A DNA stretch of 38,028 nucleotides from a virus. Of the stretch, positions 2,959 to 27,492 are shown one piece after another; the first letter of the stretch is position 1, and the number at the start of each line of letters is the position of its first letter. A program made the translations under genes and the position numbers. Under the pieces are notes generated by a model that worked only from the letters and a program-made list of their open reading frames with translations, made no database searches and had not been told where the DNA came from. Location of the stretch: positions 1 through 38,028 of IMG/VR virus record IMGVR_UViG_3300012668_000254. One strand, 5' to 3'.

Positions 2959-3555
2959 ATGGGAAAAAAAGTAAATTTTGAAAGTAAAGAATACCTTGAA
3001 AATAGAATAAAAAGTTTTTATGAAAAAATAAAAGTTGATAAAAATGGTTGTTGGTTGTGGCTCGGCGCAAATAACCAAAAATATGGAATAATAAGAATAA
3101 GAAAAACAAATATGGGTGCTCATAGGTTTTCTTATGAATATATAAAAAAAGAATCTATTGGTGATAAATTTGTCTGTCATAAATGTGATAATCCAATTTG
3201 TGTTAATCCTGATCATTTATTTTTAGGAACTCATAAAGACAACATGAAAGACGCTGTTGCAAAAAAAAGAATGGCATTTGGTGAGAAAGTTCATGGTAAT
3301 AGATTAAAAGAAAAAGAAATTAGAGAAATTCAAAGATTGATTAAAATAGGATTAAGTCAATCTCAAATTGCTAAAATATTTGATATTGAACAAACTAATA
3401 TTTCTCATATCAATTTAAATAGAAATTGGAAAAATTCAGAAAAATTAGAATATGATAGTGACATTTTAATTAAATGTATGATTTCTTTTTTTGGAGAGAT
3501 GGAAACTTATAAATTACTTCTTTTTTATGATAAAATGGTAAAAAGTTTAAAATAA
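2959..3555 (+). CDS. Free-standing HNH homing endonuclease (HNH_3 type with C-terminal HTH)
   Basis: NGCWLWLG...GAHRFSYE...CHKCDNPICVNPDHLFLGTHKDNMKD motif, then LSQSQIAKIFDIEQTNISHI (HTH). Inserted between two structural genes. Confidence 0.9.
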   Translation: MGKKVNFESKEYLENRIKSFYEKIKVDKNGCWLWLGANNQKYGIIRIRKTNMGAHRFSYEYIKKESIGDKFVCHKCDNPICVNPDHLFLGTHKDNMKDAVAKKRMAFGEKVHGNRLKEKEIREIQRLIKIGLSQSQIAKIFDIEQTNISHINLNRNWKNSEKLEYDSDILIKCMISFFGEMETYKLLLFYDKMVKSLK

Positions 3556-7773: not shown

Positions 7774-7950
7774 TTATTTTTTTCCTACTTTGACCAATTC
7801 GATAAACATTTCATATAATTTATCCGTTCTTAATGCTTGTGCGCGAATTTCTTCTCTTGCACTTCTTATATCTGCTAAAGATTCCCTATGAATATAATAA
7901 GCCGATCCTATAACTGTTGCCATAATTGATGATGTTTGTATCCAGTCCAT
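7774..7950 (-). CDS. Small N-terminal-TM protein; divergent member of the holin-like (BhlA/UviB-type architecture) family
   Basis: Start taken at MDWIQTSSIMATVIGSAYY, immediately after the upstream stop. TM helix followed by a charged helix. Lacks the DFHGRLC motif. Confidence 0.55.
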   Translation of the reverse strand: MDWIQTSSIMATVIGSAYYIHRESLADIRSAREEIRAQALRTDKLYEMFIELVKVGKK

Positions 7951-7951
7951 C

Positions 7952-8167
7952 TTATTTCCCTTTACTTCTTTCTTCAATTTTACAGAGACGCCCATGAAAT
8001 GCACGAGAATCTTTTAAGATCTCTCTATTCCAACCCCTTATTTCAATTTCAAAAGCCTTTATATCTGATCTAATCCAAGAAATTAACCCAACCATTAGTG
8101 CTATTTGAATACTTGCTATAGCTGCAATTGCAGAAATCAAACCCCAATCCAAATTATTCATTTTCAT
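7952..8167 (-). CDS. Small N-terminal-TM protein with C-terminal FHGRLCKIEERSKGK motif (family member 3)
   Basis: TM helix LISAIAAIASIQIALMVGLISW, then ...SRAFHGRLCKIEERSKGK. The ATG abuts the upstream TAA. Confidence 0.7.
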   Translation of the reverse strand: MKMNNLDWGLISAIAAIASIQIALMVGLISWIRSDIKAFEIEIRGWNREILKDSRAFHGRLCKIEERSKGK

Positions 8168-8401
8168 TTATTCCTTTTTTATACATTTACAATCTGGATC
8201 ATGCAAAATATTATCCCCAGCTGAATTCCAAGTATTTCTTAAAAAAATATAAGAATGATCTTCAAATTCTATTTTATATAAATATCTACAAGGTGCTATC
8301 TTTTTAAAATCTACTTTGTCATATTCTGAATCTTCACTCTTGCAAGCTACAAAAAAAACCATCACACCAAATAAAAACATACCAAATAAGAAATCATTCA
8401 T
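8168..8401 (-). CDS. Probable small lipoprotein (o-spanin-like or exclusion-like), Cys-rich
   Basis: Start taken at MNDFLFGMFLFGVMVFFVAC (signal peptide plus lipobox-like FVAC), with further Cys residues (PCRY, DPDCKC). The MEDYV... N-terminal extension in the track is an alternate-frame read of the upstream paralog motif. Confidence 0.55.
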   Translation of the reverse strand: MNDFLFGMFLFGVMVFFVACKSEDSEYDKVDFKKIAPCRYLYKIEFEDHSYIFLRNTWNSAGDNILHDPDCKCIKKE

Positions 8402-8594
8402 GTTTTCTATTTCTTTCCTCTGTTCTACATAATCTTCCATGGAAATCTTTCATTTCGGTTTGTATTTCTCTGATTAGAGTACAAATATCTCTTCTATCGG
8501 CATTTGCTTCTGTTCTTAGCCAAAAAAACATACCGATTGAAATAGCAGCATTTGCTAAAACTATTGTTACAACTTGAGTCCATGTATCTGTCAT
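8394..8594 (-). CDS. Small N-terminal-TM protein with C-terminal MKDFHGRLCRTEER motif (family member 2)
   Basis: AAGGA RBS. TM helix VVTIVLANAAISIGMFFWL, then EIQTEMKDFHGRLCRTEERNRKHE. Confidence 0.7.
   Translation of the reverse strand: MTDTWTQVVTIVLANAAISIGMFFWLRTEANADRRDICTLIREIQTEMKDFHGRLCRTEERNRKHE
8426..8456. repeat. 31-nt exact repeat shared with 28355..28385
   Basis: Same string read directly at both loci. Confidence 0.9.
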
Positions 8595-8606
8595 AATTTT
8601 TCCTTA

Positions 8607-8876
8607 TTATTTCTTTCCTTTACTTCTTTCTTCGATGTCGCAAAGTCTCATCTTAAATTCTATATCTTGTGTAGCAAGTTTAGTGTGAAAATCTTTCATT
8701 TCATCTTTTATGGAATTTAAGATATCTTGAGTGTTTTTTCTATGCTCATTTAAATTTTCTGAAGACTCTTTTCTATATTCATCAGATTTTCTATCACTAT
8801 AGCAAAATAAACCTATGACGGTTCCTAAATTAGCTACTGCAATAGCTACAACAGTTAGCGCTTGTTCTATTTGCAT
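8607..8876 (-). CDS. Small N-terminal-TM protein with a split MKDFH...RLCDIEERSKGKK motif (family member 1)
   Basis: AAGGA RBS. TM helix LTVVAIAVANLGTVIGLFCY. The motif is interrupted by a 12-aa insertion (TKLATQDIEFKM). Confidence 0.7.
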   Translation of the reverse strand: MQIEQALTVVAIAVANLGTVIGLFCYSDRKSDEYRKESSENLNEHRKNTQDILNSIKDEMKDFHTKLATQDIEFKMRLCDIEERSKGKK

Positions 8877-9082: not shown

Positions 9083-9712
9083 ATGACATCTCCGGATCAA
9101 GTACAACAAAATAATGATAAAGAGTATAACTTTCGTGCGCAGGCTGCAAAATATGAAGCACAACTGCAACAGGAAAGAGCTGAAAGAGAAAGATTACAAC
9201 ACGAATTAGAAGCAAGAAATAATAATGAACAGGATGAAGACGCATCAGAACCTTATGTTGATCATAAGAAACTCAATAGAACACTCGCTAAGCATGGTCA
9301 GAATACACAATCGGAAATCAATAAAGCGATGGAATACGCGAAACATACAGCCAAAGAAGAACTTAAACAAGAAATGTGGCTTGAAAATAATCCTGATTTT
9401 TATGACACCCTTAAACATGCAGAAAAATTCGCTGCAAAAAATCCTAAAATGGCTGAAACAATATTAAAAATGCCAGAAGGTTTTGAACGTCAAAAATTAG
9501 TCTATCAAAGTATCAAAGCTTTAGGTGTTGATGCTCCTGAAATCAAACAACCTTCTATACAAGAAAAGATTGATACTAATCGCAGAACACCTTATTATCA
9601 ACCATCCGGTGTTGGTGCTGCACCTTATGCGACACAAGGTGACTTTAGTCAATCGGGACAAAAAGATGCATATAGTAAAATGCAAGAATTGAAAAATAGA
9701 TTGAGGTTGTAA
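9083..9712 (+). CDS. Scaffold-like, highly charged helical protein
   Basis: Gln/Glu/Lys-rich coiled-coil N-terminus (AQLQQERAERERLQHELEARN). Lies adjacent to the co-chaperonin and terminase genes. Function inferred only from composition and position. Confidence 0.45.
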   Translation: MTSPDQVQQNNDKEYNFRAQAAKYEAQLQQERAERERLQHELEARNNNEQDEDASEPYVDHKKLNRTLAKHGQNTQSEINKAMEYAKHTAKEELKQEMWLENNPDFYDTLKHAEKFAAKNPKMAETILKMPEGFERQKLVYQSIKALGVDAPEIKQPSIQEKIDTNRRTPYYQPSGVGAAPYATQGDFSQSGQKDAYSKMQELKNRLRL

Positions 9713-9713
9713 T

Positions 9714-9986
9714 ATGAAATATCCTAAACCTTTCGGTGAAAAAATTCTCGTTAAAAGAGATAAAGTTGAAAATACTGGTAAACTCCTTTTTTCAACTAAT
9801 GTACCAAAAAATGAAGGTATAATCGTTGAAGTTGGTTGTGATACAAAAGAAAAACCAATGAGAGTAGAAATAGGTCAACATATAATGTTTTCGGGATACG
9901 GATTGACTAAAGTTCCAATTGATGAAGATAAAGAGAATGAATATATTTTAATGAATCAAAGTGATATTTTAGCTATTCTAAATTAA
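9714..9986 (+). CDS. groES: GroES/Cpn10-like co-chaperonin
   Basis: Aligns by eye along its whole length to E. coli GroES: PKPFGEKILVKRDKVE vs IRPLHDRVIVKRKEVE; EGIIVEVG vs RGEVLAVG; VEIGQHIMFSGYG...EYILMNQSDILAIL vs VKVGDIVIFNDGYG...EVLIMSESDILAIV. Confidence 0.9.
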   Translation: MKYPKPFGEKILVKRDKVENTGKLLFSTNVPKNEGIIVEVGCDTKEKPMRVEIGQHIMFSGYGLTKVPIDEDKENEYILMNQSDILAILN

Positions 9987-11257
9987 AAATTAGATTTAAA
10001 TCTATCATTTAAGTACTTGTTAGGGTTGTGAAGATAAGGTTGATAAACCGTAACTTTGTGCGTCGAGAGGAGGTACCTAAGTCCGTCAACCGCATGGTCG
10101 GCCTTCTTAACAGGTGCATCATCACCCTGTTTTGATTTCTTATCATCCCATACATATGTTTGAATCTCACGGATGAGATTCTTACACTCTTTACATACTA
10201 CAAAATTACCATCACTCATTTCATTTGTCATCTTAGCTATGCCATTAAATACATCATTATCCGCATCTATAACATGCATTCCTCGTCGTTGTAGTTCTAA
10301 ACGCAACGCAGCTGCACTAGGATCGATATAAACTCCTTTTGGTCCATATGGTTCAAGAAAGTCTTTTATATCGTCAGCAAGTTCAGAAACAGTCTTTTGT
10401 CTACCTTGTTTGCGACTATCCCAATAATATTCTTTCTCAGCCCACATCTTTTTCCCGCGTTGATCTCTTACTCCTGTATAAACACCAACTAACACACAGG
10501 CAGTTGCATTGCTAATTCCGTAATCTATACCCGCAATCCAATAATCAGCAGCTTCTGGCGGTTTTGAAACTACATGTAATTTAGGATCAAAAAAGTCAAA
10601 GATTGCACCTTCAGCAAGACACCATAATCCAAGATAATCTCGTTTATAGAATATACCATTTTTATTAGCTGCAAGTCTGTCTTTATAGTCTTGTGGCACA
10701 TAAGGATTATCTTCTAACGTCCAGTGCATAGCATAGTAATTTTTATCGCCTTCTGCTGCCTTATCTACCCATTGCTTGATAGTATGATCAGGATATGTAG
10801 GATTACAGGTAACAACAGCTTTTGACCAAGGACAACTCAAACGCTGATCCAATATCTCGATAATAGATAAAGGATAAAGAGTGATCTCATCACAATAAAG
10901 TAAAGACATGGTTTTACCACGAATAGAACGAACAGCTCCCTCATCTTTAGCACCTAAAATCTTAATAGTTTTGTCTCTAAAAGTAAGCACTCTATTTCCT
11001 GTTGACCAAGAACAAAAAGGTTCAAAGATAGCAAATTGAGGACTTTCAAAGATAAGTTTTATCACATTGTCATAAAGAGTTTCACTCGTATGACCTATCA
11101 TGTAGATTTGAGAATCAGGGCATATTTGCGCTTGATGTAGAAACCACCAGAAAGTTCCTACAGTTTTACCAGTTCTAACGCTCCCATGCGCTATATTCCA
11201 TTTTGCATTTGCTTCTTTGATAAAAAGTACTTGTTTTTCTGATAGTAAATCTTGCAT
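9983..11257 (-). CDS. terL: Terminase large subunit
   Basis: Walker A HGSVRTGKT, Walker B LLYCDE, and nuclease-domain motifs AGIDYG and HAVDGLRYL. The track ORF begins at a TTG (11287); the ATG-ATG at 11260/11257 preceded by AAAGGA is the more likely start. Confidence 0.9.
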   Translation of the reverse strand: MQDLLSEKQVLFIKEANAKWNIAHGSVRTGKTVGTFWWFLHQAQICPDSQIYMIGHTSETLYDNVIKLIFESPQFAIFEPFCSWSTGNRVLTFRDKTIKILGAKDEGAVRSIRGKTMSLLYCDEITLYPLSIIEILDQRLSCPWSKAVVTCNPTYPDHTIKQWVDKAAEGDKNYYAMHWTLEDNPYVPQDYKDRLAANKNGIFYKRDYLGLWCLAEGAIFDFFDPKLHVVSKPPEAADYWIAGIDYGISNATACVLVGVYTGVRDQRGKKMWAEKEYYWDSRKQGRQKTVSELADDIKDFLEPYGPKGVYIDPSAAALRLELQRRGMHVIDADNDVFNGIAKMTNEMSDGNFVVCKECKNLIREIQTYVWDDKKSKQGDDAPVKKADHAVDGLRYLLSTHKVTVYQPYLHNPNKYLNDRFKSNF

Positions 11258-11281
11258 CATATCCTTTCTAATGGGGTAAGT

Positions 11282-11674
11282 ATGCAAAATAGAGCAAAGT
11301 GCAAATTATGTGAATCAATTATTGAAAGTTTTCATTCTCAAGATTATGTAATGTGCAAATGTGGAGAGATTGCAGTGGGTGGTGATGTTGGTGATTACCC
11401 ATGTGCTGCAAAAAACTGGGATAACTTTTTGCGTGTGGATGATGAAGGTAACACAATCATACCTAAAATCAAAAATAAAGATGATGTAAAACCGCTTTAC
11501 ATTGAACCAAATGAAGTGTCAAAACCAACACGTGATGATTTAATCAAGATTCTTGATGATATGGTTAAAAGTATTGAGAAATTACCTCCAGAAGCAATGA
11601 CTACATATGTAAATCAATATGATTTGATGTCATTTTTGATGATTTTGAGTGCAATATTTAAGGCTAAAGAATAA
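11282..11674 (+). CDS. Zinc-ribbon protein (CxxC...CxC), function unknown; contains hairpin repeat copy 1
   Basis: Start taken at MQNRAKCKLCESIIESFHSQDYVMCKCGE. Divergent from terL. Confidence 0.6.
   Translation: MQNRAKCKLCESIIESFHSQDYVMCKCGEIAVGGDVGDYPCAAKNWDNFLRVDDEGNTIIPKIKNKDDVKPLYIEPNEVSKPTRDDLIKILDDMVKSIEKLPPEAMTTYVNQYDLMSFLMILSAIFKAKE
11484..11502 (+). repeat. Hairpin repeat copy 1: ATGTAAA-ACCGC-TTTACAT
   Basis: The 19-nt core is identical to 36268..36286 and to the reverse complement of 23134..23152. Here it lies inside a CDS and encodes VKPLYI. Confidence 0.9.
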
Positions 11675-11805
11675 ATAATTAAATTTTAATTAATTTCAAT
11701 AGATAATCTTGAATTATGCAGCAGTAATCATGGGCCTACTCAACATGTTGAAGATAGAATAAAGTATTATATTGAATTTCTCAACCAGTACGGGTATAAG
11801 TTAAT

Positions 11806-11821
11806 AAAAGAATAAATTTAA
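11806..11821 (+). promoter_or_regulatory. 16-nt motif AAAAGAATAAATTTAA upstream of the portal start; second copy at 14216..14231
   Basis: Exact 16-nt identity, and both copies lie 15-30 nt upstream of a start codon. A partial third copy is at about 11664-11690. Confidence 0.35.
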
Positions 11822-11836
11822 TATTCGGAGGCTAAT

Positions 11837-11962
11837 TTGAGTAGTTTTTATAATGCTCCATGGCAGAATGATCAAGAGCCGAATAGTGGTAATGTTCGTC
11901 ACTTTTTAGACCAATTATATAGTAAATTCATGCCACTTGAACAAAGTCGCTGGAATCAGAGT
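11837..11962 (+). CDS. Portal protein, exon 1 (42 codons, TTG start)
   Basis: GGAGG sits 5 nt upstream of TTG 11837. Encodes (M)SSFYNAPWQNDQEPNSGNVRHFLDQLYSKFMPLEQSRWNQS, then an in-frame TAA that begins the intron. The last six exon nt, cagagt, pair with gctctg (11971-76), with a U-G wobble at the junction. Confidence 0.7.
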
Positions 11963-12180
11963 TAAGAATTGCTCTGAATAAACCTTCTCTGATTGACTCG
12001 GAAGCCCGATGGGGTGACGAGGGGCAAGTTTAAATACAGCCTGAACGACTGAGCGAGAGGGACTCGGAAACGAGTATGCAACAGTCTGAACACTACGGAT
12101 AACACCAAGGTAGTGAGGGAGATTCGAAGAAGTTTCCCCGCTCACAATATATTGTGAGTCATAAAAGTAACAGATCTCGG
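11963..12180 (+). ncRNA. ORF-less group I intron in the portal gene (about 218 nt)
   Basis: GC-rich structured island in AT-rich DNA. Elements seen: P1 (11957-62 / 11971-76); P3 ccttctc (11983-89) / gagaggg (12055-61); R-like gaacgactga; P8 hairpin actcg-GAAA-cgagt (12062-75); S-like acagtctgaac. The 3' tail ...ctcacaatatattgtgagtcataaaagtaacag is shared with the capsid introns. The exact 3' splice site (after G12180 vs G12173) is inferred from the reading frame. Confidence 0.75.
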
Positions 12181-14208
12181 AATATCGATACGCTTTTCTA
12201 TGCCGGCAACCAGTCTTTTATTAATAGGACTTTGAACAACGGACTCGCCACGTCTTATAAAGATTATTATTTCAATTTAGTTCAACAGCCCGTCAATATG
12301 ATCACAGGTTATGAGCGGCAGCATCGTAAAAACTTCTCTTATGTAGCTACAGAAGGTGCTGATCCTTTAACAACTGATCAATATACTACACTTATAACTC
12401 ACGCAGCCAATCAAGGTTGTATTCACGAACAGAAGTCTAAGGCAAAAGAACTTGCTGCTATATCTGGAATGGTTTTAATGCAACCATATCTTGATTATAC
12501 AGGTGATGACCAAGCTCAAGGAACACTTAAAACTAAGATTTGGGAATATAACTCATTTCTAGTTGACCCTTACTTTCGTAATCCTGATATGTCAGATGCT
12601 CAGTTTGTCTGGTGTCAGGAATATATAAGCAAAAGAGAGGCAGAAGATCGATTTCCAGAAAAACTCAAAAATATTATGCCAATGTCTGGTACACCCCAGC
12701 GTTATGGAAACTTCTATTTTTTACCAGAAAACCATAATATGGCTAGAAATGATCTTATGGTCTTGTCATATGTTTGGTATAAATGGAAAAGGAAAAAGAA
12801 ACGTTTATATAGTAGGTCACGTAATCAATTCTATGATTTTGCAGGTGGTGAAGAAAATCTGGAACAAATCTTATATAATATCGAAGACATGGAAGAAGTT
12901 ACTGTTGATGTCCCATGTTGGAAATTAGCAGTTATTCTAAATGAACAACTTATGTATTCAGGTGAAAATCCACTTGGATTCGATGATTGTCCATTTATAC
13001 CATACTATTGGAACTATGATCCACATATAAATCACTTTGACTTACGTGTGAGATCGTTAATTAGAACTATGCGAGATCCGCAATTCCTTTTTAACTATAA
13101 GGTTATCCAAAATAATGATATCGCTAGCGCGACAATCAATGCTGGATGGAAACGTAAAATAGGAGCAGTTGCAAATGAAGACAACCTTAAGAAAGCCGGT
13201 CAAGGATGGGATGTTATCATTAATGAAGGCTATGAACTTACTGACTGTGAAAAAATTATCCCTAGTGCTGTTCCAGAGTCTGATCTTGCCTTGGCACAAC
13301 AAATGGCTGATCTTATATACAACGTTTCTGGGATTAATTTAGAAAATTGGTCTGGACAGCAAGATAAGCAAATATCATCATTGACTATGATGCTAAAACA
13401 AGCAGCCAATTTGATGGTATTTCAAAAGTATTTTGACCAATGGGATTTTTCAGATAAATTGCTAGGGGATAGACTAATCCAAATTGTATTAAACAATTGG
13501 AATGCAGCCAAAGTTCAACTTTATATTGGTGCTGAACCATCACCTCATTTTTTCAGTAAAGTATTTTGTAAGTTTCAGACAATTGTTGAAGAATCTGACC
13601 TTACACCTACTCAGCAGAACTTGCAAGCATCTCAAATGCTAGACATAAATGAAAAATTTCAAAGAGAAGTTTTTCCTCCATCTATGATCATACCAAAATT
13701 AAATATAACTGGAAAAGCAGAAATAATCCAGTTCTTATCAGAACAAGAGCAGCAAATGCAAGCCGCTCAAGGCGAGGAAATGAACTTGAAGCACACTGTA
13801 GAGGAAGTGCGCCTCAAGGAGATGATGGCGAAAATTCACAACCTTCTTTCACAGGCTCGTGAACGTGATTCTCGTTCAGCCTCAAATGCAGGTTTATTTG
13901 AAGAAAGAATGTCAATGGTCTCACGCAACCACTCAATGGCAACAAAAGACAAAATGGCTGCTCTTGCACAGTTGTTAGAAACTATTCAGAAATTCGGAGA
14001 GGTTGAGACATTCTTAAAATCAAACGAATTGGAAAGTGTTAAACTTGATGAAGAAGAACAAGAAAAAACAGCTCGACAAAATGTTGAGACAACAGAAGCT
14101 TCAAAAGAATTTATGGAACAATTAATGGGTACGATGGGACAATCAGGAAGACAACAAAATTCACAACAACAACAACAACCTATGCAAAATAACCAAATGA
14201 TGATATAA
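12181..14208 (+). CDS. Portal protein, exon 2
   Basis: Continues in frame as NIDTLFYAGNQSF... The 675-aa remainder has a Gln-rich acidic tail, and size and position are typical of a portal. The track ORF start at 12154 (GTG) lies inside conserved intron sequence. Confidence 0.7.
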   Translation, partial: NIDTLFYAGNQSFINRTLNNGLATSYKDYYFNLVQQPVNMITGYERQHRKNFSYVATEGADPLTTDQYTTLITHAANQGCIHEQKSKAKELAAISGMVLMQPYLDYTGDDQAQGTLKTKIWEYNSFLVDPYFRNPDMSDAQFVWCQEYISKREAEDRFPEKLKNIMPMSGTPQRYGNFYFLPENHNMARNDLMVLSYVWYKWKRKKKRLYSRSRNQFYDFAGGEENLEQILYNIEDMEEVTVDVPCWKLAVILNEQLMYSGENPLGFDDCPFIPYYWNYDPHINHFDLRVRSLIRTMRDPQFLFNYKVIQNNDIASATINAGWKRKIGAVANEDNLKKAGQGWDVIINEGYELTDCEKIIPSAVPESDLALAQQMADLIYNVSGINLENWSGQQDKQISSLTMMLKQAANLMVFQKYFDQWDFSDKLLGDRLIQIVLNNWNAAKVQLYIGAEPSPHFFSKVFCKFQTIVEESDLTPTQQNLQASQMLDINEKFQREVFPPSMIIPKLNITGKAEIIQFLSEQEQQMQAAQGEEMNLKHTVEEVRLKEMMAKIHNLLSQARERDSRSASNAGLFEERMSMVSRNHSMATKDKMAALAQLLETIQKFGEVETFLKSNELESVKLDEEEQEKTARQNVETTEASKEFMEQLMGTMGQSGRQQNSQQQQQPMQNNQMMI

Positions 14209-14215
14209 AAAGATT

Positions 14216-14231
14216 AAAAGAATAAATTTAA
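14216..14231 (+). promoter_or_regulatory. Second copy of the AAAAGAATAAATTTAA motif
   Basis: Exact copy of 11806..11821, upstream of the 14259 gene. Confidence 0.35.
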
Positions 14232-14258
14232 AGAGTCGGTAGACTCATGGAGTTAAGT

Positions 14259-14504
14259 ATGTCAGAAAAACAAAGAACTGGTACTGCTAAATCAGGCGGA
14301 ATGTCTGTAAATGATCATTCATTTTTTGCCGGAAGCGGTTCACCTACATTTCCAATTGGAAATAAAATGAAGCAATATACAGGTGCTGAAGGTGCTGGTT
14401 CTGAAATGGATTATGAAGATACAAGCCCTAAGATTAAACAGATGCAAGATGAAGGCATCGCTAAAGTAAAAGCACATCCTATGAAGCCAAATTATAGAAA
14501 TTAA
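14259..14504 (+). CDS. Small hypothetical virion-module protein
   Basis: GGAG sits 6 nt upstream of ATG 14259 (MSEKQRTGTAKSGG...), which is in frame with the track ORF start at 14247. Confidence 0.55.
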   Translation: MSEKQRTGTAKSGGMSVNDHSFFAGSGSPTFPIGNKMKQYTGAEGAGSEMDYEDTSPKIKQMQDEGIAKVKAHPMKPNYRN

Positions 14505-14530
14505 ATTTTATTCCTTATGTTAAACATGAG

Positions 14531-14558
14531 AGAAATAGGGGTTTAGGCTCCTATTTCT
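14531..14558. terminator. Stem-loop between convergent genes (bidirectional terminator candidate)
   Basis: agaaatagg / loop / cctatttct, a 9-bp stem between the + gene ending at 14504 and the - gene ending at 14676. There is no clean U-tract on either side. Confidence 0.4.
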
Positions 14559-14675
14559 TAATTAAAAATGCAAAACTTGATTGGAAAAAAGATTAGTAAA
14601 TTTATTGATTCGTTTAAGAGGTATCTTAAGCCTTGTTTTTGCAAAAAAAGTATTCATAATAATGATTATCAGACG

Positions 14676-14852
14676 TTATTTCTCTAATCTCATGAGAAAA
14701 CCGCATTCGCTATAAAACTTCTTATCTCCTCTAGTCACCACTTCCTCTAATAATCTACAGGATTCTTTAAAACTATACTTATATTTTCTCTGAATATATG
14801 CCGTAGAAACAGTACCCATTAACCTAAAATTTTTTCTTATTTCTTTTTTCAT
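14676..14852 (-). CDS. 58-aa winged-helix protein resembling the FtsK gamma domain
   Basis: Hand-translated: MKKEIRKNFRLMGTVSTAYIQRKYKYSFKESCRLLEEVVTRGDKKFYSECGFLMRLEK. The VSTAYIQRKYKYSF..RLLEE pattern resembles the FtsK-gamma S-x-LQR-x-Y..A..L consensus. Below the ORF-track size cut-off. Confidence 0.45.
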   Translation of the reverse strand: MKKEIRKNFRLMGTVSTAYIQRKYKYSFKESCRLLEEVVTRGDKKFYSECGFLMRLEK

Positions 14853-14874
14853 AATACTTGTTATTTTTTTAAGA

Positions 14875-14907
14875 TTGAATTATACATCATAACATAGTGG
14901 AACTTTA
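14875..14907 (-). promoter_or_regulatory. Leftward promoter candidate: TAAAGTT-13nt-ATGTATAATTCAA
   Basis: The 13-nt core ttgaattatacat is identical to 9035..9047. It lies 23 nt upstream of the ATG at 14852. Confidence 0.5.
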
Positions 14908-14918
14908 AAAGGTACAAC

Positions 14919-15200
14919 ATGAAAAGAAATAAAGAGCAGATAAATGCTAAATCTGAATTTGCTGATCCTGATCGCATAAAAGAACAGAGAGAAATTGATA
15001 AACCTATTGATGGTAAAAAATCTCCTTGGGATTTTCGTTGCCCTCAATACGATCAACGCTCAAGCAATTTTATCAATGCAGGTACGCATTATGGTATAGG
15101 AATTAAACAACCTGTAGGACATAAAGGTGACCCAAAACAATTTGTAGATGTATTGCCATTTGGAAGACCTACAACAATGAGAGTAGATGATGAAGGCTAA
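14919..15200 (+). CDS. Small basic hypothetical protein containing HYGIGIKQPVGH
   Basis: ORF following a strand switch. Shares a YG-x-(G/A)-IKQ-x-VG motif with the overlapping next ORF. Confidence 0.55.
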   Translation: MKRNKEQINAKSEFADPDRIKEQREIDKPIDGKKSPWDFRCPQYDQRSSNFINAGTHYGIGIKQPVGHKGDPKQFVDVLPFGRPTTMRVDDEG

Positions 15201-15357
15201 AGTTAAAAACGCCCATACTCCTAAATCATCAATTGGTATGGGCGATTATTATGGTCAGGCTATCAAGCAAAAAGTAGGCAAAATGAGGTCAAGTACTCTG
15301 GATTATAGTATGCCAACGCCTCAAAATTTAAAGAAACCGCCTAAGAGTTTGGCTTAA
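15190..15357 (+). CDS. 55-aa hypothetical protein containing GDYYGQAIKQKVGK
   Basis: Hand-translated: MKAKVKNAHTPKSSIGMGDYYGQAIKQKVGKMRSSTLDYSMPTPQNLKKPPKSLA. Overlaps the upstream gene by 11 nt. Below the ORF-track cut-off. Confidence 0.45.
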   Translation: MKAKVKNAHTPKSSIGMGDYYGQAIKQKVGKMRSSTLDYSMPTPQNLKKPPKSLA

Positions 15358-15369
15358 ATATTGATTTTT

Positions 15370-15873
15370 TCATAATATTAATTTTCCTATTTTTCCAATT
15401 CGTTTATTCATTCGTCTTGCATGATTTGCATCTCTTGATAAGTCTTTGTAAATTTGGTTGATTTTCTCATCGGAAAGATCATCATCCTCATTTCTAGCAA
15501 GTGTATCTCTATCAAACTGAAATGCTCGAATACTATCACAAATCGTCTTATTTTCGGTAACTTTACCTTCTTCATATTGATTCCATAACTCTCTTGTAGG
15601 TATCATCCAAATAATTTTAACAATGTCTTTCCCAGGATAAGCTTTAAAAAGCATACTGTTTGTCTGAGGTTTTGGTCTAGTTAATCTAGGTTGCCAAATA
15701 AGTCTTTTTGTTACTCCATCATCATCTGTTCGAGTATGTGCAAAAATATAGAAAGGATAACTTCCGAAAGGTCGTCTATTTATCAAATCTTGACAACATT
15801 CGCCAATATCAAAATCAGATTTTGTAGTAAAACTTTTGTATCTATCATGTGCTTCAAATAAATTTAATTTCAT
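15370..15873 (-). CDS. Hypothetical 167-aa protein on the opposite strand within the structural region
   Basis: Clean ORF with no motif I can name. Confidence 0.6.
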   Translation of the reverse strand: MKLNLFEAHDRYKSFTTKSDFDIGECCQDLINRRPFGSYPFYIFAHTRTDDDGVTKRLIWQPRLTRPKPQTNSMLFKAYPGKDIVKIIWMIPTRELWNQYEEGKVTENKTICDSIRAFQFDRDTLARNEDDDLSDEKINQIYKDLSRDANHARRMNKRIGKIGKLIL

Positions 15874-17761: not shown

Positions 17762-18952
17762 ATGGCTTCAAGTAATTCTTTAAACATTTCTCAAAAAGGT
17801 GTTGTATATTTTAATGGAGTGACAACATTTTCAGGACTTGATGGAAGCACATCAGGAAAAGTTCTTACTTCTAATGGAACAGGAATAGCACCAAGTTTTC
17901 AAACTATAACTACTGGAATTACACTTACAGGTGATTCAGGAACAGCTACAGGATCATCTTTAACATTATTTACAAATGCTTCTACAATTAATGCTGGATC
18001 AACAATAAAATTTGTTAATAGTGGAACTACATCTACTTTAAATACTACAGATGGCGTAGCAAACACTCTTATAGGTCATAATTGTGGTAATGCTACTCTT
18101 ACAGGAATTGCAAATACAGGATTAGGACAAGCCACATTAATTAGTTTGACAAGTGGTATTCAAAATACAGCAATCGGTAACGGTGCGCTTTTATCTGTAA
18201 GTAGTGGCGTTGCAAATACTGCTATTGGATATTTAGCAGGTCAATTAATAACTACAAGTTCTGAAAATTGTATATTCGGCTGGGGAGCAATGACAAATGC
18301 TTTTGGAGTCAATAGATGCGAAGCAATGGGTACATCAGCATTAAATTTTTGTACTGGAAATGACAATGCAGCATTTGGTTATCATGCTGGTACAACTATA
18401 TCAAGTGGTACTCAAAATACTGCATTAGGAAATTATGCTATTAATGTTTTGTCAACTGGAACAAATAATGTTGCGATAGGATATGGAGCGGGTTCAAATT
18501 ATACATCTTCTGAATCAAATAATATTGTAATTTCATCTGCTATTTCAGGTGTAATTGGGGAATCGAATGTAGTTAGAATAGGTACTAATCAAACTACATG
18601 TTTTATTCAAGGTATTAATGGGGCTACAGTCACAGGAACATCTGTCTTATGCTCTACAGCAGGACAACTTGGAACCGTAGTATCATCTGAGCGATACAAA
18701 GAAAATATTGTTGATATGCCTGACAACGTATCTATCATGAATTTAAGACCTGTAAGATTTAACTACAAAGAAGATATTTTTAAAACAATTTCTTACGGTC
18801 TCATAGCCGAAGAAGTAGAAAAAGACTTTCCTTATCTTTGTTTTTATAAAGACGGTCAACCGGAATCTGTAAAATACCATGAACTTTGCGTTTTCTTGTT
18901 AGCAGAAGTTCAACGATTAGAGAAACGGGTGAATGTCTTAGAAACAAAATAA
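17762..18952 (+). CDS. Tail fibre or spike with a C-terminal intramolecular chaperone (peptidase S74) domain
   Basis: The C-terminus SSERYKENIVDM...RPVRFNYK...YGLIAEEVEKDFPYL...YHELCVFLLAEVQRLEKRV matches the S74 auto-cleaving chaperone pattern (S-[DE]-R-x-K-E-N, GLIAxEVE). It is preceded by NTAIG / NVAIG beta-helix-like repeats. Confidence 0.85.
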   Translation: MASSNSLNISQKGVVYFNGVTTFSGLDGSTSGKVLTSNGTGIAPSFQTITTGITLTGDSGTATGSSLTLFTNASTINAGSTIKFVNSGTTSTLNTTDGVANTLIGHNCGNATLTGIANTGLGQATLISLTSGIQNTAIGNGALLSVSSGVANTAIGYLAGQLITTSSENCIFGWGAMTNAFGVNRCEAMGTSALNFCTGNDNAAFGYHAGTTISSGTQNTALGNYAINVLSTGTNNVAIGYGAGSNYTSSESNNIVISSAISGVIGESNVVRIGTNQTTCFIQGINGATVTGTSVLCSTAGQLGTVVSSERYKENIVDMPDNVSIMNLRPVRFNYKEDIFKTISYGLIAEEVEKDFPYLCFYKDGQPESVKYHELCVFLLAEVQRLEKRVNVLETK

Positions 18953-18955
18953 AGT

Positions 18956-19279
18956 TTATCTATACTTCGAGGGACAATCTTTATTCTGACAGGCTTTACC
19001 AATAGGCCAGAATTGGTAACAATAAGGACACTTCCAAGTCTTTTCATAGTTTGATCGACAATCTTTTCTATGTATTAAGTCTTCTGTAAGAGAATAAAAT
19101 CCCGTTTCATCTCTATGAATACAATTCGTTTCTATCCATTCATTTCCACCCATATGTACTCTAAAAGCACAGTCTGAGCTATCTAAATTGATTGGATCAA
19201 TATACATTTTACTTGATGCACACAAAACGAATGATGCAATCAAAAAAGGGAAGATTAATAATTTAAAATATTTATTCAT
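18956..19279 (-). CDS. Secreted Cys-rich small protein with a C-terminal zinc-ribbon-like CPYC...CxxxxC
   Basis: N-terminal signal peptide MNKYFKLLIFPFLIASFVLCASS and 8 Cys in the mature part. Confidence 0.55.
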   Translation of the reverse strand: MNKYFKLLIFPFLIASFVLCASSKMYIDPINLDSSDCAFRVHMGGNEWIETNCIHRDETGFYSLTEDLIHRKDCRSNYEKTWKCPYCYQFWPIGKACQNKDCPSKYR

Positions 19280-19908
19280 AATTCAATTCTCATGGGTTTG
19301 TTAACGGGTTCATACCTTTCATTCATAATACTGCAATTTACACAAATTGTAGTCGTTAAATCAATCATTTTGCCGCCATTTTCGTGAATATGCGAGAAGA
19401 TCACTAATTTTGGTTTTATTCGAAATATAGCATCTCTTAAAGAAGTAGATCCTACATGAAGCATAGAACCATCTTGTTTCTCGATTTCATCAAGAATACC
19501 AAATGGAGGACTATGCGAAATTAAGATATCAATATCCTCAGGAATAAGATCAGATTTTTCTTTCATATATTTTTCATTCCCACAAAATGCTGTACACTTT
19601 GGATTTATCTCGCTGAAAGATAAACTATAGGGAATTCCAAAAAACTTAAAACCTTTATATTCAATCCCTTCATTTTCTAAATAATGACCATTTTTAATTT
19701 TATAAGTTTTATTTTCAAGAAGATTGTCATGATTACCACCAATTACAATTTTAAGATCAGCTTTTTGTTTTTTCAACCACTCGTCAAACATCTCATATTC
19801 TTTATAAGAATCACGAGCAGTGAGATTTCCTGTTATTATCAAAATATCACAAACATCTATAATAGGTTTATATCCATGCAAACATCCAACAGAAATAATT
19901 TTTTTCAT
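19276..19908 (-). CDS. Calcineurin-like metallophosphoesterase with variant metal-binding motifs
   Basis: GGNHDN, LISHSPP and FSHIHENGG are present. The first two canonical motifs read GCLHG (not DxHG) and ITGNL (not GD). Confidence 0.7.
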   Translation of the reverse strand: MKKIISVGCLHGYKPIIDVCDILIITGNLTARDSYKEYEMFDEWLKKQKADLKIVIGGNHDNLLENKTYKIKNGHYLENEGIEYKGFKFFGIPYSLSFSEINPKCTAFCGNEKYMKEKSDLIPEDIDILISHSPPFGILDEIEKQDGSMLHVGSTSLRDAIFRIKPKLVIFSHIHENGGKMIDLTTTICVNCSIMNERYEPVNKPMRIEL

Positions 19909-20504
19909 AAATGAGAATATGACCTATAATTTATATAATTTGAGATTGCTTGCTTAGTAACACCATATTTTTTTCCTAATTCAGTTATAGAATTTTCTGG
20001 GTATGATTTTCTTATTTCAATAATTTGTTGATCTGATAATTTAGAGTTATAATTTTTTGATCCAAAAAGAGATCTTCCACGTTTAACCATATCTTCTGAA
20101 TTTTGTTTTGTAGTTCCTGTTTCTAAATGTGCAATATTACAACAATTTCTTATATCACATTTATGACGAATCACTAATCCATCGTAATTTGCAGGAAAGT
20201 AGTGAGAATATATCAATCGACTTATTAGATAATTTTTATCACAAATATAAAAAGTTCCATAACCATAATTATTTTTTGAATTTATCCATATTTTGCAACC
20301 ATTTTCATTTTCAGATAAATTTTCCACAATTTCTATCAAATCTTCAATCGAATTTCGGTATTTTCTTGTTGCATGTGGAGTACCAAGTCTTTTAAAATTT
20401 TGATAGTGCTTACTACAATAACCTAAACCTTTTGATGGTTCTTCGCATATTTTACATTTTTTTCTTTCAAATCTATTTTTAAATGAATATTTACGATTCG
20501 TCAT
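19905..20504 (-). CDS. HNH homing endonuclease (HNH_3 type with C-terminal HTH)
   Basis: NGCKIWINS...YGYGTF...RHKCDIRNCCNIAHLETGTTKQNSEDM, plus ITELGKKYGVTKQAISNYI. Overlaps both neighbouring genes. Confidence 0.9.
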   Translation of the reverse strand: MTNRKYSFKNRFERKKCKICEEPSKGLGYCSKHYQNFKRLGTPHATRKYRNSIEDLIEIVENLSENENGCKIWINSKNNYGYGTFYICDKNYLISRLIYSHYFPANYDGLVIRHKCDIRNCCNIAHLETGTTKQNSEDMVKRGRSLFGSKNYNSKLSDQQIIEIRKSYPENSITELGKKYGVTKQAISNYINYRSYSHL

Positions 20505-22018: not shown

Positions 22019-22879
22019 TCATTCATTTTCACTTATTCTATAATAAGTACAGGGTTTTTTCCTATAATCATCAAGATTAACAGTTTTTAAACATTCAATT
22101 CCAGAATAATCTACAGTTCCTCTACGGTTACATTTAGTGATTTTGAAATTACCAGCTTTTGTTGATTTTTCTTCACAATTAGCAATAATCCATTTTTGCA
22201 AACTTTCTTCTTGTTCTTCTAATTCTTTAATCTGCCTTCTAGTATTAATTAATACCTGTAAATTAGATACAAACTCAGCATCTTGTTTTATGACATAATC
22301 CCTATCAGTTGAAGCAGGAGGCGTAAATTCCATTAGACAACGATAGAATTCTTTTTCAGCTTCGATCATTCTTTCAATAAAAGTATCATCTCTCTTTACA
22401 GTCCAAATAATGTTGTCTTCATCTGATCTATATGAAAAATAAGCCACATAATTTGTATCTGAAACAAACATTTGATGTTGAAGTTGAGCTAAGTAATAAG
22501 GAGAAATTTCATGGTTTTTAGCCAATTCATGTGATGCTTTACCGCATTTTATCTCCAAAATAGAGCCATCAAAATCTATTCCATCTAAAGATGCCATAGC
22601 AAAAGGGTGTATAGTACTTTCTAAAACAGCTGGCTTGAAATTCAAGTGCATTTTTTTATTTAAGAAGTTTCTTGCTTTTTCTTCTAAGAGAGATCCTTCT
22701 CTCATTTTATCATTTAGGGCTTGGGGTTCACGAAGACCTAACTTTTCTTCCCATAATTGCAATGCTGTACAAAAGGGGGAAAGATTCATTATTTTTGCTG
22801 CATCAGTAGCTGTTATCTTTGTTTTCCTATATTGTAACCAGAGATCACTTCCTTGCAATAAATCGATTACTCTATGCAT
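22019..22879 (-). CDS. YqaJ/lambda-Exo-type recombination exonuclease (PD-(D/E)xK)
   Basis: GSDLWLQYRKTKITATDAAKIMNLSPF...LWEEK (YqaJ N-terminal signature) and SLDGID...ILEIKC (D...ExK). Several ATGs (22900-22879) overlap the recT stop; the one best spaced from GGGGTGG is used. Confidence 0.85.
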   Translation of the reverse strand: MHRVIDLLQGSDLWLQYRKTKITATDAAKIMNLSPFCTALQLWEEKLGLREPQALNDKMREGSLLEEKARNFLNKKMHLNFKPAVLESTIHPFAMASLDGIDFDGSILEIKCGKASHELAKNHEISPYYLAQLQHQMFVSDTNYVAYFSYRSDEDNIIWTVKRDDTFIERMIEAEKEFYRCLMEFTPPASTDRDYVIKQDAEFVSNLQVLINTRRQIKELEEQEESLQKWIIANCEEKSTKAGNFKITKCNRRGTVDYSGIECLKTVNLDDYRKKPCTYYRISENE

Positions 22880-23696
22880 CATCATCCACCCCAGTTTCAC
22901 TTATATTTTCCATTTCCTTTTCAACAAGTTCTTTTTGATAAGATTTATATCTCGCCAACAAAATATCCTTATGTTTTTGAAATTCCGTTTCAGGCAAGTC
23001 GTCAATCATACTAGCTTTGAATTTATCTTTTAAGTAAGTTTTGAAGTTTATCTGCACTTCTTGAGAGCAACCATTAAGTAATTGGGTTAATTCTATGGCT
23101 TGCTGTGTAGAAATTGTAGTTAAATTTTCTACTATGTAAAGCGGTTTTACATTGGATTTATCAGCTTTATCCGCTTGGTCCATCTCTTCTTCTCCATATA
23201 ATCCGCTCATTTCTGCTGGAAAGCTTTTACGTAAAGCCAAGCATTCAGCACATTTTGATAACATAGCTTTTGGCATTTTTTTCCATAACGGAGAACCTGC
23301 ATTATATTCACTATAACAAGCATTTGCTGAAACCTGATGCCAAGTACCGTCTTTAGTCTGTTTCATCACGTAAGCGGTCGCAGACTCTAAATTTCCATGC
23401 TTATCATAAGTAAACGTCGGTTCTTTACCTGGTGCATAACGACCACTTCTATCAGCAATTAAACGAAACCCGTCAACTGACGTTTGGATTGTTCTTTGAC
23501 CTCCACGAGGAACAGAGTAAATCTGTTTAGCAAAAGGATCTAATCCCGTTCTTTGACAAGCGTAAATGAAGAATTGAAGTTCTTCATTGCTTGCACCTTT
23601 ACAAATGCTATTTTTGATAAGCTCAACTTGTTTCTCATCGAAATGATGGGATTGAACTTGTGGTTGAAATCTCTCTATTTTTGCTAATGCTGTCAT
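22872..23696 (-). CDS. recT: RecT-family single-strand annealing protein; contains hairpin repeat copy 2 in its C-terminal tail
   Basis: QIYSVPRGGQRTIQTSVDGFRLIADRSGRYAPG...ATAYVMKQTKDGTW...MLSKCAECLALRKSFPAE, typical RecT core. Confidence 0.85.
   Translation of the reverse strand: MTALAKIERFQPQVQSHHFDEKQVELIKNSICKGASNEELQFFIYACQRTGLDPFAKQIYSVPRGGQRTIQTSVDGFRLIADRSGRYAPGKEPTFTYDKHGNLESATAYVMKQTKDGTWHQVSANACYSEYNAGSPLWKKMPKAMLSKCAECLALRKSFPAEMSGLYGEEEMDQADKADKSNVKPLYIVENLTTISTQQAIELTQLLNGCSQEVQINFKTYLKDKFKASMIDDLPETEFQKHKDILLARYKSYQKELVEKEMENISETGVDDDA
23134..23152 (-). repeat. Hairpin repeat copy 2 (sense on the minus strand)
   Basis: The reverse complement equals ATGTAAAACCGCTTTACAT. Lies inside recT and encodes VKPLYI. 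Confidence 0.9.
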
Positions 23697-27134: not shown

Positions 27135-27299
27135 TCAAACTCCATTTTTTATCCCTATAGCTTTACATCCACATTTTTTGTTATGTTTTTTTGGACGCTT
27201 AGAGCAGTAAAGGCAGTCAGAATCATTACATATAGATTCTATCCATGTACCATCCTTTAAATAATAACTATCCCAGTTAGCACAATAGCTATTTGCCAT
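27135..27299 (-). CDS. Cys-rich small protein
   Basis: Start taken at MANSYCANWDSYY..., overlapping the upstream stop. 7 Cys in 54 aa. Confidence 0.45.
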   Translation of the reverse strand: MANSYCANWDSYYLKDGTWIESICNDSDCLYCSKRPKKHNKKCGCKAIGIKNGV

Positions 27300-27492
27300 A
27301 GCATAATCCTCTTTCGATATGTTGAATTCTATCTTCAAGCTCTAAGATGCGTTTCGTAAGTTCGCCATTCTTAGCAAATAAACCACGCCTGACTTTGTCA
27401 GAAGATTGCTTCACAGCAATCATTTCTAATCTCAAATGATCAATTTCACACTGTTCCAAACTTTTAAATAAATCTAATTGTATTGCGTACAT
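27289..27492 (-). CDS. Hypothetical coiled-coil protein
   Basis: First ORF downstream of the extended -10 promoter at 27531-38. Confidence 0.5.
   Translation of the reverse strand: MYAIQLDLFKSLEQCEIDHLRLEMIAVKQSSDKVRRGLFAKNGELTKRILELEDRIQHIERGLCYGK

Follow-up and report, generated by a model that had tools for sequence, protein, structure and literature searches.

A 19-bp DNA palindrome, ATGTAAA-N5-TTTACAT, is present in four copies in the viral genome studied here, recurs in a large family of uncultured phages and is also found in Chlamydiota chromosomes. It is conserved by sequence rather than by pairing, and selection acts on the DNA. Our preferred interpretation, which we hold with no more than moderate confidence and for which no binding protein has been identified, is that it is a double-stranded DNA site for a dimeric, probably host-supplied protein, and the shared site hints that these phages infect Chlamydiae.

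The element and its copies in the window

The window, that is the whole 38,028-nucleotide stretch of DNA analysed, is a circular or terminally redundant complete genome, since positions 1-77 are identical to 37952-38028. We found that the pattern ATGTAAANNNNNTTTACAT matches at four positions, against a mean of 0.00 in 100 dinucleotide-preserving shuffles. The exact 19-mer ATGTAAAACCGCTTTACAT occurs three times, the fourth copy has the centre GCTAC, and no further copies were seen at up to 3 mismatches apart from one chance-level hit at 4542. The original prediction was correct as to the repeat and its gene contexts. We additionally noted that each of the four copies is followed by TG on the + strand, and that TTTACATTG occurs only in these four places. 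The copies and their surroundings are as follows.

11484-11502, copy 1, ATGTAAAACCGCTTTACAT on the + strand, in frame (DVKPLYI) in the variable linker of the DUF7695 zinc-ribbon ORF, about 200 bp upstream of the divergent TerL start
11282-11674, + strand, DUF7695 zinc-ribbon ORF (Pfam PF24749, E 5e-12) that hosts copy 1, divergent from TerL (9983-11287, minus strand)
23134-23152, copy 2, the same 19-mer read on the minus strand, in frame (NVKPLYI) in the linker after the RecT core domain
22872-23696, minus strand, gene for a RecT-like single-strand annealing protein (PHROG 2780, E 7e-44) that hosts copy 2
27692-27715, possible decayed copy, GATGTCAAACCGAGTTTTACGATC, encoding DVKPSFT, 12 nt upstream of copy 3
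27728-27746, copy 3, ATGTAAAGCTACTTTACAT, the only copy lacking G at position 11; its ATG TAA supplies the last codon and the stop of ORF 27554-27733
27554-27733, + strand, small ORF (59 aa, signal peptide and Cys, lipoprotein-like) whose stop codon lies inside copy 3
27763-27788, minus strand, canonical G+C-rich hairpin plus T-run terminator of the convergent minus-strand genes, 16 nt from copy 3
36268-36286, copy 4, the exact 19-mer on the + strand, in the 36-nt gap between ORF 36106-36261 and ORF 36298-37536
36288-36300, + strand, GGAG ribosome-binding site and TTG start of ORF 36298-37536, 1 nt after copy 4; the orthologous N-terminus (M/L)NLLxDIxTYVRR aligns in relatives

Symmetry and selection at the DNA level

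To determine whether the motif is specific to this phage family, we collected 119 IMG/VR loci matching ATGTAAA-N5-TTTACATTG (L numbers below denote relatives and other loci). Of the 59 that share proteins with the window, 56 have an nCnGn centre, whereas only 6 of the 60 unrelated loci have it. Across more than 250 related uncultured phages of ~40 kb the element is ATGTAAA-nCnGn-TTTACAT, with the consensus ATGTAAAGC-S-GCTTTACAT, a core of TGTAAA-nCnGn-TTTACA and a weak CA/TG extension. The 'loop' is thus not free. Position 9 is C and position 11 is G in 27 of 28 exact-arm copies, and these bases are mutually complementary. In the symmetrised matrix position 8 is G in 60% and the centre is C/G in 72%, and an unbiased set of 56 sites gave the same picture (G 58% at position 8) along with weak C(-1) A(0) flanks. 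The element is therefore a full DNA palindrome of 19 bp with a single central base. The remaining 'free' positions are homogeneous within a genome (ACCGC three times in the window, GCTGT three times in L127, GCSGC four times in L177, GCGGA three times in L185 and L194, and GCAGC twice in L388), as expected if the sites of each genome match one cognate protein. Isolated half-sites numbered 0 in the window against 1.4 expected, and 124 against 84 in 2.3 Mb of family loci; we take the unit to be the dimer site and not an abundant single signal of the uptake or Chi type.

The original prediction favoured a hairpin with an asymmetric loop that is always sense to transcription, and this framing is not supported. 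At the orthologous junction before the 36298 gene, relatives carry both ACCGC and its reverse complement GCGGT in the same gene orientation, and in the two coding copies the 'sense' orientation is forced by the reading frame (K-P-L on one strand and K-R-F on the other). Among perfect 6-bp inverted repeats with an nCnGn spacer, only TGTAAA arms are enriched (44 against 2 or fewer), and there are 17 single-arm mismatches and no compensated ones. Of 47 one-mismatch sites, 34 are changed at the outermost base and the remainder at half-site positions 2, 3 and 5; positions 4, 6, 7 and 9 are never hit. Variants such as TTGACAT break the middle of any RNA stem, yet they persist in 4 diverged relatives.

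An RNA hairpin at cistron boundaries, which might protect 3' or 5' ends after processing, slow terminating ribosomes or bind an RNA-binding protein, nevertheless remains possible, although we consider it unlikely. In its favour, 18 of 29 non-coding copies in the phage family (62%) overlap or abut a stop codon and host loci behave in the same way, which a DNA-binding model does not predict and which we cannot explain. Copies are also followed at once by GGAG, AGGA or GAGG and a start codon in phage and host alike, a palindrome gives the same hairpin from either strand, and a hairpin is predicted to form, with z-scores of -2.6 to -4.1 for copies 1, 2 and 4 with flanks. However, the 7-8-bp, A/T-rich stem is weak, at -2.8 to -4.9 kcal/mol, internal A.G and C.U mismatches persist, and the symmetric C and G of the loop cannot be paired by a 1-nt loop. 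Copies also lie in divergent promoter regions and inside ORFs on either strand, and a scan of the window at the Rfam gathering threshold found only the group I intron. The element is not an intrinsic terminator, as the copies are followed by TGAACC, TGGATT, TGAGAT and TGGAGT rather than by a T run and none was detected by a terminator scan, whereas genuine terminators in the window have 5-6 G-C pairs and T runs. Likewise, a promoter reading with TTTACA as a -35 was rejected, since no -10 lies at 16-18 nt beside any window copy and no conserved flank lies at fixed spacing in 56 sites; only L128 and L179 have a sigma-70-like promoter, 25 nt downstream.

We next assessed whether the coding copies could be explained by the encoded peptide. 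Both window copies of this type use the same frame and encode (D/N)VKPLYI, the TerL peptide VKx(I/L)YI is conserved for protein reasons, and some high-G+C metagenome hits (L287, L342 and L360; DVKPIYI) may be coincidences. However, in the DUF7695 linker, which is otherwise unalignable, 9 relatives have orthologous copies with the fixed rare codons GAT GTA AAR CCG CTT KAC AT, and rare synonymous codons are fixed wherever the element is present. Relatives L126 and L127 also carry a copy inside RecT. In TerL the site arises inside the conserved peptide PYxVKx(I/L)YIDPS by codon and residue choice without any indel, in at least two TerL clades (QDY... and EPY...); six of the 8 distinct VKQ(I/L)Y sequences have the full motif, while L154 and L182 encode the peptide without it. 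In chlamydial orthologues NVKPLYITDFDL and HVKRLYMTEFDL differ by a flip of the central base, which exchanges Pro and Arg while the DNA motif is kept. Given also that two of the four window copies and about half of the family copies are non-coding, we conclude that chance or convergence on a peptide motif is effectively refuted. The test that the original prediction had named as grounds for refutation, the same peptide without nucleotide conservation, came out mostly against refutation, apart from the two TerL exceptions.

A further possibility raised by the original prediction is a miniature mobile palindrome, considered here as a REP-, RPE- or MITE-like selfish repeat spread in trans by a host enzyme or by short-homology recombination (the phage encodes RecT and a RecE-like exonuclease), landing in permissive places and carried between chlamydial chromosomes and their phages. 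We regard this as a live though less likely alternative. The g35504|g36298 junction is filled in about 10 relatives, which carry the element plus a few nt, and empty in about 45, where the two genes abut. L194 equals L185 minus a ~370-bp segment bounded by two copies, small ORFs are bracketed by copies in L185, and clusters occur (4 copies in 600 bp in L305, and 2 each in L275, L292 and L297). Distribution on the portal tree is patchy, and identical copies within a genome, in-frame copies in variable linkers and adjacency to stop codons are also compatible with this view. Five near-complete relatives have no copy at all, so that the site is not essential to the family, which counts against our preferred interpretation. 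On the other hand, the indel-free origin in TerL needs selection or templated conversion rather than insertion, and copies sit at orthologous positions in diverged chlamydial genes and in divergent promoter regions. There is no GTAG-type head, no target-site duplication and no transposase in the phage, and the sequence is conserved across contigs of 30-55% G+C, unlike species-specific REPs. Density is also low, at roughly one extra copy per 35-60 kb of host DNA, although this is only an estimate, complete host genomes could not be scanned, and whether the element has the high copy number and associated transposase of such repeats remains undecided.

There was no support for an endonuclease target, also put forward originally, and a recombinase crossover site that shuffles modules seems very unlikely. 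The window has four HNH genes (at 2959, 19905, 28157 and 34384) and an intron LAGLIDADG gene (at 29994), but the sites are not adjacent to them and are maintained by selection rather than avoided. Gene order differs between the window and its relatives, the TerL/DUF7695 pair, which is conserved in relatives, is inverted in some, and in L305 a small serine recombinase gene ends in the motif, with more copies upstream. However, the rearrangement breakpoints of the window do not coincide with its copies, no recombinase gene was found in the window or in the high-copy relatives, and an odd central base does not fit the 2-bp stagger of serine recombinases or the 6-8-bp spacer of tyrosine recombinases.

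Occurrence in Chlamydiota chromosomes

The same element was found in Chlamydiota chromosomes. In L386, L388, L389, L339 and L382 it lies exactly at the stop of a ParA-like gene, 5-23 nt before the RBS/start of the CT583-family (UPF0137) gene, and in L334 it lies at the ParA stop but about 210 nt before the CT583 start. It lies 47-85 nt upstream of thrS in L309, L322, L341 and L372, in divergent promoter regions in the case of L322 and L341. Other copies flank or lie inside assorted housekeeping genes, including those for Rsm22 and DHDPS. The arrangement in which a gene ends in the TAA of the motif, as at copy 3, recurs in phage relatives and in chlamydial loci. The sequence itself gave no hits in the searchable literature, and it does not match the published motifs of the chlamydial transcription factors Euo, HrcA, PhoB and NrdR (PMC4989314).

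No close isolated relatives were found by megablast or by portal tblastn in INPHARED, and metagenome-assembled genome bins carrying the portal are scattered over unrelated phyla and are uninformative. TerL is a PBSX-type terminase with about 34% identity to Firmicutes and Actinobacteria records when compared against plasmids, without a chlamydial signal, and a search for GroES homologues gave only 3 phage hits without host information. A blastn search of PLSDB with a double-site query gave no match, possibly for lack of sensitivity. The chlamydial plasmids pSn, pPNK and pCHL1, which encode ParA plus CT583 proteins, have no copy at 1 mismatch or fewer, although pSn has a 2-mismatch palindrome 118 bp upstream of parA.

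We also looked for a protein that might bind the site. Pfam and PHROG scans of about 40 window ORFs found only HNH-associated HTHs, a lambda-O-like initiator and a weak TerS-like HTH, none of which correlates with the motif. The best correlate in gene presence, g27289 (67 aa, QLDLF N-terminus), appeared associated at 6/13 against 1/36 but is also present in motif-free relatives, and the RecE-like exonuclease correlates only weakly. In motif-free relatives a search for alternative repeat motifs yielded only coding repeats and ori-like iterons. A structure model of a CT583-family protein (pLDDT 81) is predicted to be all-alpha, with no PDB fold match at E<=0.001 and no recognisable DNA-binding fold; the model is uninformative.

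Possible roles and related systems

Taken together, the observations are consistent with a dyad-symmetric recognition site read by a sequence-specific protein dimer, and of the three roles suggested originally a protein-binding site is the best supported. We infer that the binder is supplied by the chlamydial host, or is a factor shared between host and phage, and that motif-bearing phages acquired or evolved sites to recruit it. The phage sites are inferred to sit mainly at operon boundaries, namely after the scaffold gene and before the capsid gene, after g35504 and before g36298, and upstream of TerL/portal. A bound dimer could act there as a roadblock or insulator, or as a promoter-distal regulator that ties late-gene expression to host state; alternatively, it could tether the phage DNA to a host maintenance system of the ParA/CT583 type. 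If this is correct, the palindrome points to an unknown DNA-binding activity in a phylum with very few regulators, for which the orphan ParA/CT583 (Pgp5/Pgp6-like) pair, whose partner function is unknown (PMC7846284), is one candidate, and it provides an example of a phage acquiring host-type protein sites by codon choice inside essential genes. If the element is instead a selfish palindrome, it would be a repeat shared between an obligate intracellular bacterium and its phages.

More speculatively, and we consider this improbable on present evidence, the palindrome could be an undescribed, phylum-wide cis element of Chlamydiota chromosomes, read by a chlamydia-specific protein such as CT583/Pgp6 acting as a non-ParB centromere or operator protein. 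The phage family (at least 255 IMG/VR contigs) would then copy the site to plug into that host system, either for maintenance during reticulate-body division or for timing of late genes. The shared site would give what may be the first host assignment of tailed dsDNA phages to environmental Chlamydiota, as the recognised chlamydial phages appear to be small ssDNA microviruses.

The element can be compared with several known systems. Like the 17-bp OR/OL sites of lambda and the 19-bp tetO, it has two 8-9-bp half-sites around a single central base pair, is conserved by sequence with symmetric tolerance to mismatch, and is present in a few copies per genome; however, its copies are dispersed inside ORFs and at gene ends rather than clustered at one promoter, no cognate repressor gene was found, and the site also occurs in the presumed host chromosome. 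The stoperators of mycobacteriophage L5 and cluster A are probably, like the present sites, short and scattered through the genome, often in tiny intergenic gaps that overlap stop and start codons, where a bound protein would block elongation, but those sites appear to be asymmetric, oriented with transcription, 20-30 or more in number and bound by the repressor of a temperate phage. Here the site is palindromic, there are 0-4 copies, and no integrase or repressor was found among the scanned ORFs, although not every small ORF could be classified.

Partition centromeres such as the sopC-like repeats of N15 and chromosomal parS are probably also dispersed palindromes of 16-19 bp, a handful to tens per replicon, that often lie inside coding sequence, and a single host parS may stabilise a foreign replicon. 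Two of the four window copies lie in ORFs and one host copy lies at the parA/CT583 locus, but no ParA or ParB domain was found in the window ORFs scanned, CT583/Pgp6 is not known to bind DNA, and the plasmids with this protein pair lack the site. REP/BIME elements and Rickettsia palindromic elements share the location at 3' ends of genes close to stop codons, occasional clusters, in-frame copies in an obligate intracellular bacterium and presence/absence polymorphism. The element differs from them in its apparently much lower copy number, its perfect 19-bp conservation across a phylum, its copies in divergent promoter regions, its indel-free origin in TerL and the absence of any RAYT-type gene in the window. 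Finally, the PeSL cassettes of T4-type phages are probably repeated stem-loop units that flank small accessory ORFs and mark indel boundaries, and are comparable in this respect; these seem to include an early promoter and to be structure-conserved and phage-specific, whereas the element described here has no promoter at fixed spacing and is shared with a cellular genome.

The repeated element and the genome that carries it

The pattern ATGTAAA-N5-TTTACAT was found at four positions in the window, whereas none of 100 dinucleotide-preserving shuffles gave a single match. Three of the copies are the identical 19-mer ATGTAAAACCGCTTTACAT, two on the + strand and one on the - strand, and the remaining copy has the centre GCTAC. 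No further degenerate copies exist at up to 3 mismatches, beyond one chance-level hit. The contexts given for the copies in the original prediction are right, and are as follows:

11484, inside a DUF7695 zinc-ribbon ORF
23134, inside RecT
27728, supplying the ATG-TAA end of a small lipoprotein-like ORF
36268, filling the gap before the GGAG/TTG start of ORF 36298

All four copies are followed by TG on the + strand. The contig (source record JGI 3300011246, Ga0137490_1000025) has an exact 77-nt terminal overlap and is therefore a circular or terminally redundant complete genome of about 37.95 kb, with about 33% G+C. We noted a number of features of this genome:

1-77 and 37952-38028, the exact terminal overlap
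29600-32740, a capsid gene that appears split (29600-29926 and 32135-32740) by a group I intron (Rfam RF00028 at 30848-31110, 79 bits) carrying a LAGLIDADG ORF (29994-30914); relatives have intact or differently interrupted capsid genes
11978-12165 versus 31327-32126, a 51-nt repeat (12115-12165 against 32076-32126, 90%) and a 30-nt repeat (11978-12007 against 31327-31356, 80%), which suggest a second, related intron-like element ending at the start of the portal ORF; relatives match the portal only from residue 10
2959-3555, 19905-20504, 28157-28369 and 34384-34992, four HNH endonuclease genes, two of them with C-terminal HTH domains
7774-8876 and 28320-28550, minus strand, five paralogous small transmembrane proteins of unknown function with a shared C-terminal motif (K)DFHGRLCxIEE(R)xKG
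9714-9986, a phage-encoded GroES/Cpn10 homologue directly downstream of the scaffold-like gene, for which only three homologues were found, all on ~38-39-kb contigs
27289-27492, minus strand, a 67-aa protein starting MYAIQLDLF, which resembles the beta-clamp-binding pentapeptide QL(S/D)LF and belongs to a conserved family that sits next to the RecE-like exonuclease in several relatives

Together with the intron LAGLIDADG gene, the four HNH genes represent an unusually high load of homing-type nucleases for a 38-kb genome; nevertheless, it is very unlikely that the repeated element is an endonuclease or recombinase target.

Conservation of the element in related phages

The phage has no relatives among isolated phages, but it belongs to a large uncultured family, as at least 255 IMG/VR contigs of 37-42 kb encode a portal 68-87% identical to that of the window. 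The element recurs among 80 portal-centred loci, and among loci fetched with two other structural proteins, and alignment of the copies changes its description. It can be seen that 27 of 28 exact-arm copies have C at position 9 and G at position 11, a signature that fades as the arms degrade (20 of 26, then 6 of 33, then 7 of 184 at 1, 2 and 3 mismatches). The symmetrised matrix gives c-a-ATGTAAA-(G 0.60)-C-(C/G 0.72)-G-..., and an unbiased set of 56 sites gave the same result, with weak C and A flanks. The 'loop' is therefore part of a 19-bp dyad, ATGTAAAGC-S-GCTTTACAT, with one central base. The signature is also family-specific: of 119 IMG/VR loci holding ATGTAAA-N5-TTTACATTG, 56 of the 59 with protein homology to the window have the nCnGn centre, compared with only 6 of the 60 without homology.

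We next assessed whether structure or sequence is conserved; one rival explanation for the element is an RNA hairpin acting at cistron ends. Among all perfect 6-bp inverted repeats with an nCnGn spacer in 1.76 Mb of family DNA, only TGTAAA arms were enriched (44 against 2 or fewer), and there were 17 single-arm mismatches and no compensated pair. Over 269 distinct sites, one-mismatch variants hit the outermost base (34 of 47) or half-site positions 2, 3 and 5, but never positions 4, 6 or 7, and the tolerance is thus base-specific and symmetric. A TTGACAT variant that would break the middle of an RNA stem persists in four diverged relatives. The RNA hairpin is worth only -2.8 to -4.9 kcal/mol and has no U tract, while the real terminators of the genome are G+C-rich with T runs. 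The original prediction had also described the hairpin as always sense to local transcription. However, at the orthologous junction before g36298, relatives carry ACCGC and also GCGGT on the sense strand, so the orientation seen in the window is not a family property, and in the two coding copies it is imposed by the reading frame.

Two genes indicate that selection acts on the DNA. In the DUF7695 gene the element lies in a linker that cannot be aligned between relatives; even so, nine relatives keep GAT GTA AAR CCG CTT KAC AT there, using codons that are rare for an A+T-rich genome. In TerL the element appears inside the conserved nuclease-domain peptide PYxVKx(I/L)YIDPS with no length change. 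Six of the eight distinct VKQ(I/L)Y sequences have the full motif, whereas L154 and L182 (two TerL relatives) encode the same peptide with synonymous codons that destroy it, and motif-bearing sequences occur in two TerL clades, QDY... and EPY.... By our rough estimate the chance of such a match from codon usage alone is about 3-4 in 10,000 per lineage. Chance and pure peptide convergence are therefore most unlikely, and simple insertion cannot explain these copies.

Distribution of the sites in the phage family

In relatives, the element recurs immediately after the stop of the scaffold-like gene and 200-650 nt before the capsid gene, with one to three copies; between g35504 and g36298; in the DUF7695 gene, about 200-500 bp upstream of the divergent TerL start; in TerL; in RecT; and just upstream of the portal. 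The capsid-to-g35504 operon is thus often bracketed by copies. Gene order in the window (9083-15873) differs from that of relatives L122-L127, in which the scaffold-like gene lies between g15370 and the capsid gene, whereas in the window it precedes GroES/TerL, and the divergent TerL/DUF7695 pair is inverted relative to the portal in L124-type genomes. In two further relatives (L128 5721 and L179 15074) the element ends exactly 25 nt before a near-consensus sigma-70-type promoter (TTGACA/TTGACT, then a 17-19-nt spacer, then TATATT) upstream of the capsid gene, although the intervening sequence is dissimilar between the two. Within a genome the three 'free' positions tend to be identical: ACCGC x3 in the window and, among relatives, GCTGT x3 in L127, GCSGC x4 in L177, and GCGGA x3 in L185 and L194.

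The distribution is patchy and is interleaved on a portal tree. Five near-complete relatives have no copy and two have four. In one motif-free relative, L134 (about positions 218-350; contig IMGVR_UViG_3300037827_000472, 23469-23600), tandem iterons GGGGACAGAAAA (at least 4 copies, in two groups) look like a replication origin. At the g35504|g36298 junction most relatives have abutting genes with no element, and L194 differs from L185 by a ~370-bp segment bounded by two copies. Of 52 distinct family sites, 23 lie in ORFs; of the 29 others, 18 overlap or abut a stop codon, and four of these use the motif's own TAA. The strong tendency to overlap stop codons, the junctional presence/absence polymorphism and the copy-bounded indel are not predicted by a plain operator model. 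They keep alive two rival explanations: a REP- or RPE-like selfish palindrome, which we consider possible though unlikely, and the RNA hairpin, which is more doubtful still. The indel-free TerL copies, the copies in divergent promoters (see below) and the lack of covariation argue against each rival in turn.

The element in Chlamydiota

Of the loci considered here, 47 belong to the phage family and 73 do not. The 73 non-family loci span 25-58% G+C, are enriched for the perfect palindrome GCSGC (about 60% against 11% expected from the pattern), contain 10 additional copies in 367 kb, including clusters, and are flanked by ordinary housekeeping genes with no single theme. An example of clustering is L305 (300-1634), a 2-kb metagenome contig carrying a small serine recombinase gene whose stop lies in the palindrome, with three more copies and several CCGCTTTACAA half-repeats within 600 bp upstream.

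One group of these loci has the synteny thrS, ParA-like ATPase, UPF0137, and homologues of the UPF0137 protein are named 'CT583 family protein' from Chlamydiota, Chlamydiia and Simkaniaceae. In large or named chlamydial contigs, parA ends ...ATG TAA inside the element and the CT583-family gene starts 11-14 nt after it; this holds for L386, L388 and L389 (one mismatch). Metagenome loci L339 and L382 have the same close arrangement, while in L334 and L313 the element lies further from the CT583 start, about 210 and 40 nt, and two other genomes, L387 and L390, lack the element. In four other lineages the element lies 47-85 nt upstream of thrS, twice in a divergent promoter region. Copies inside host genes recur at orthologous positions, and in one pair, NVKPLYITDFDL and HVKRLYMTEFDL, the central base flip turns Pro into Arg while the DNA motif is kept. 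No paper in the literature searched contains the sequence, and it does not resemble the Euo, HrcA, PhoB or NrdR motifs (PMC4989314).

We conclude that the repeat is real and is a dyad-symmetric 19-bp DNA word that is conserved by sequence, is under DNA-level selection in both coding and non-coding settings, and is present both in a phage family and in chlamydial chromosomes. We infer that it is the site of a sequence-specific dimer; the architecture matches classical 17-19-bp operators. We further infer that the protein is host-supplied or shared, because the site is ancient and positionally conserved in the host but patchy in the phages, and that the phages therefore replicate in Chlamydiota. 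The element is best regarded as a palindromic protein-recognition site, a known kind of element, with an unknown binder, and it is shared between an obligate intracellular bacterial phylum and a previously host-less phage family.

Placement at operon boundaries suggests that the bound protein might act in the phage as a roadblock, insulator or distal regulator of the late operons, which is stoperator-like logic. On the other hand, the copy at the host parA/CT583 junction and the dispersed, partly intragenic distribution suggest a parS-like or organising site that a plasmid-like phage could exploit. In this regard, Köstlbacher et al. note that ParA/Pgp5 homologues are on all chlamydial chromosomes and plasmids, that the plasmids lack ParB, and that Pgp6 is essential for plasmid maintenance but of unknown function (PMC7846284). 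The evidence for the partition variant is weak, however, since the CT583 model (pLDDT 81, all-alpha) matches no solved fold and chlamydial plasmids with ParA plus CT583 lack the site. A related palindrome, ATGTACAACTGTTATACAT (2 mismatches, nCnGn centre kept), lies at 18943-18961 of the Simkania plasmid pSn (L391), 118 bp upstream of the plasmid parA-CT583 operon.
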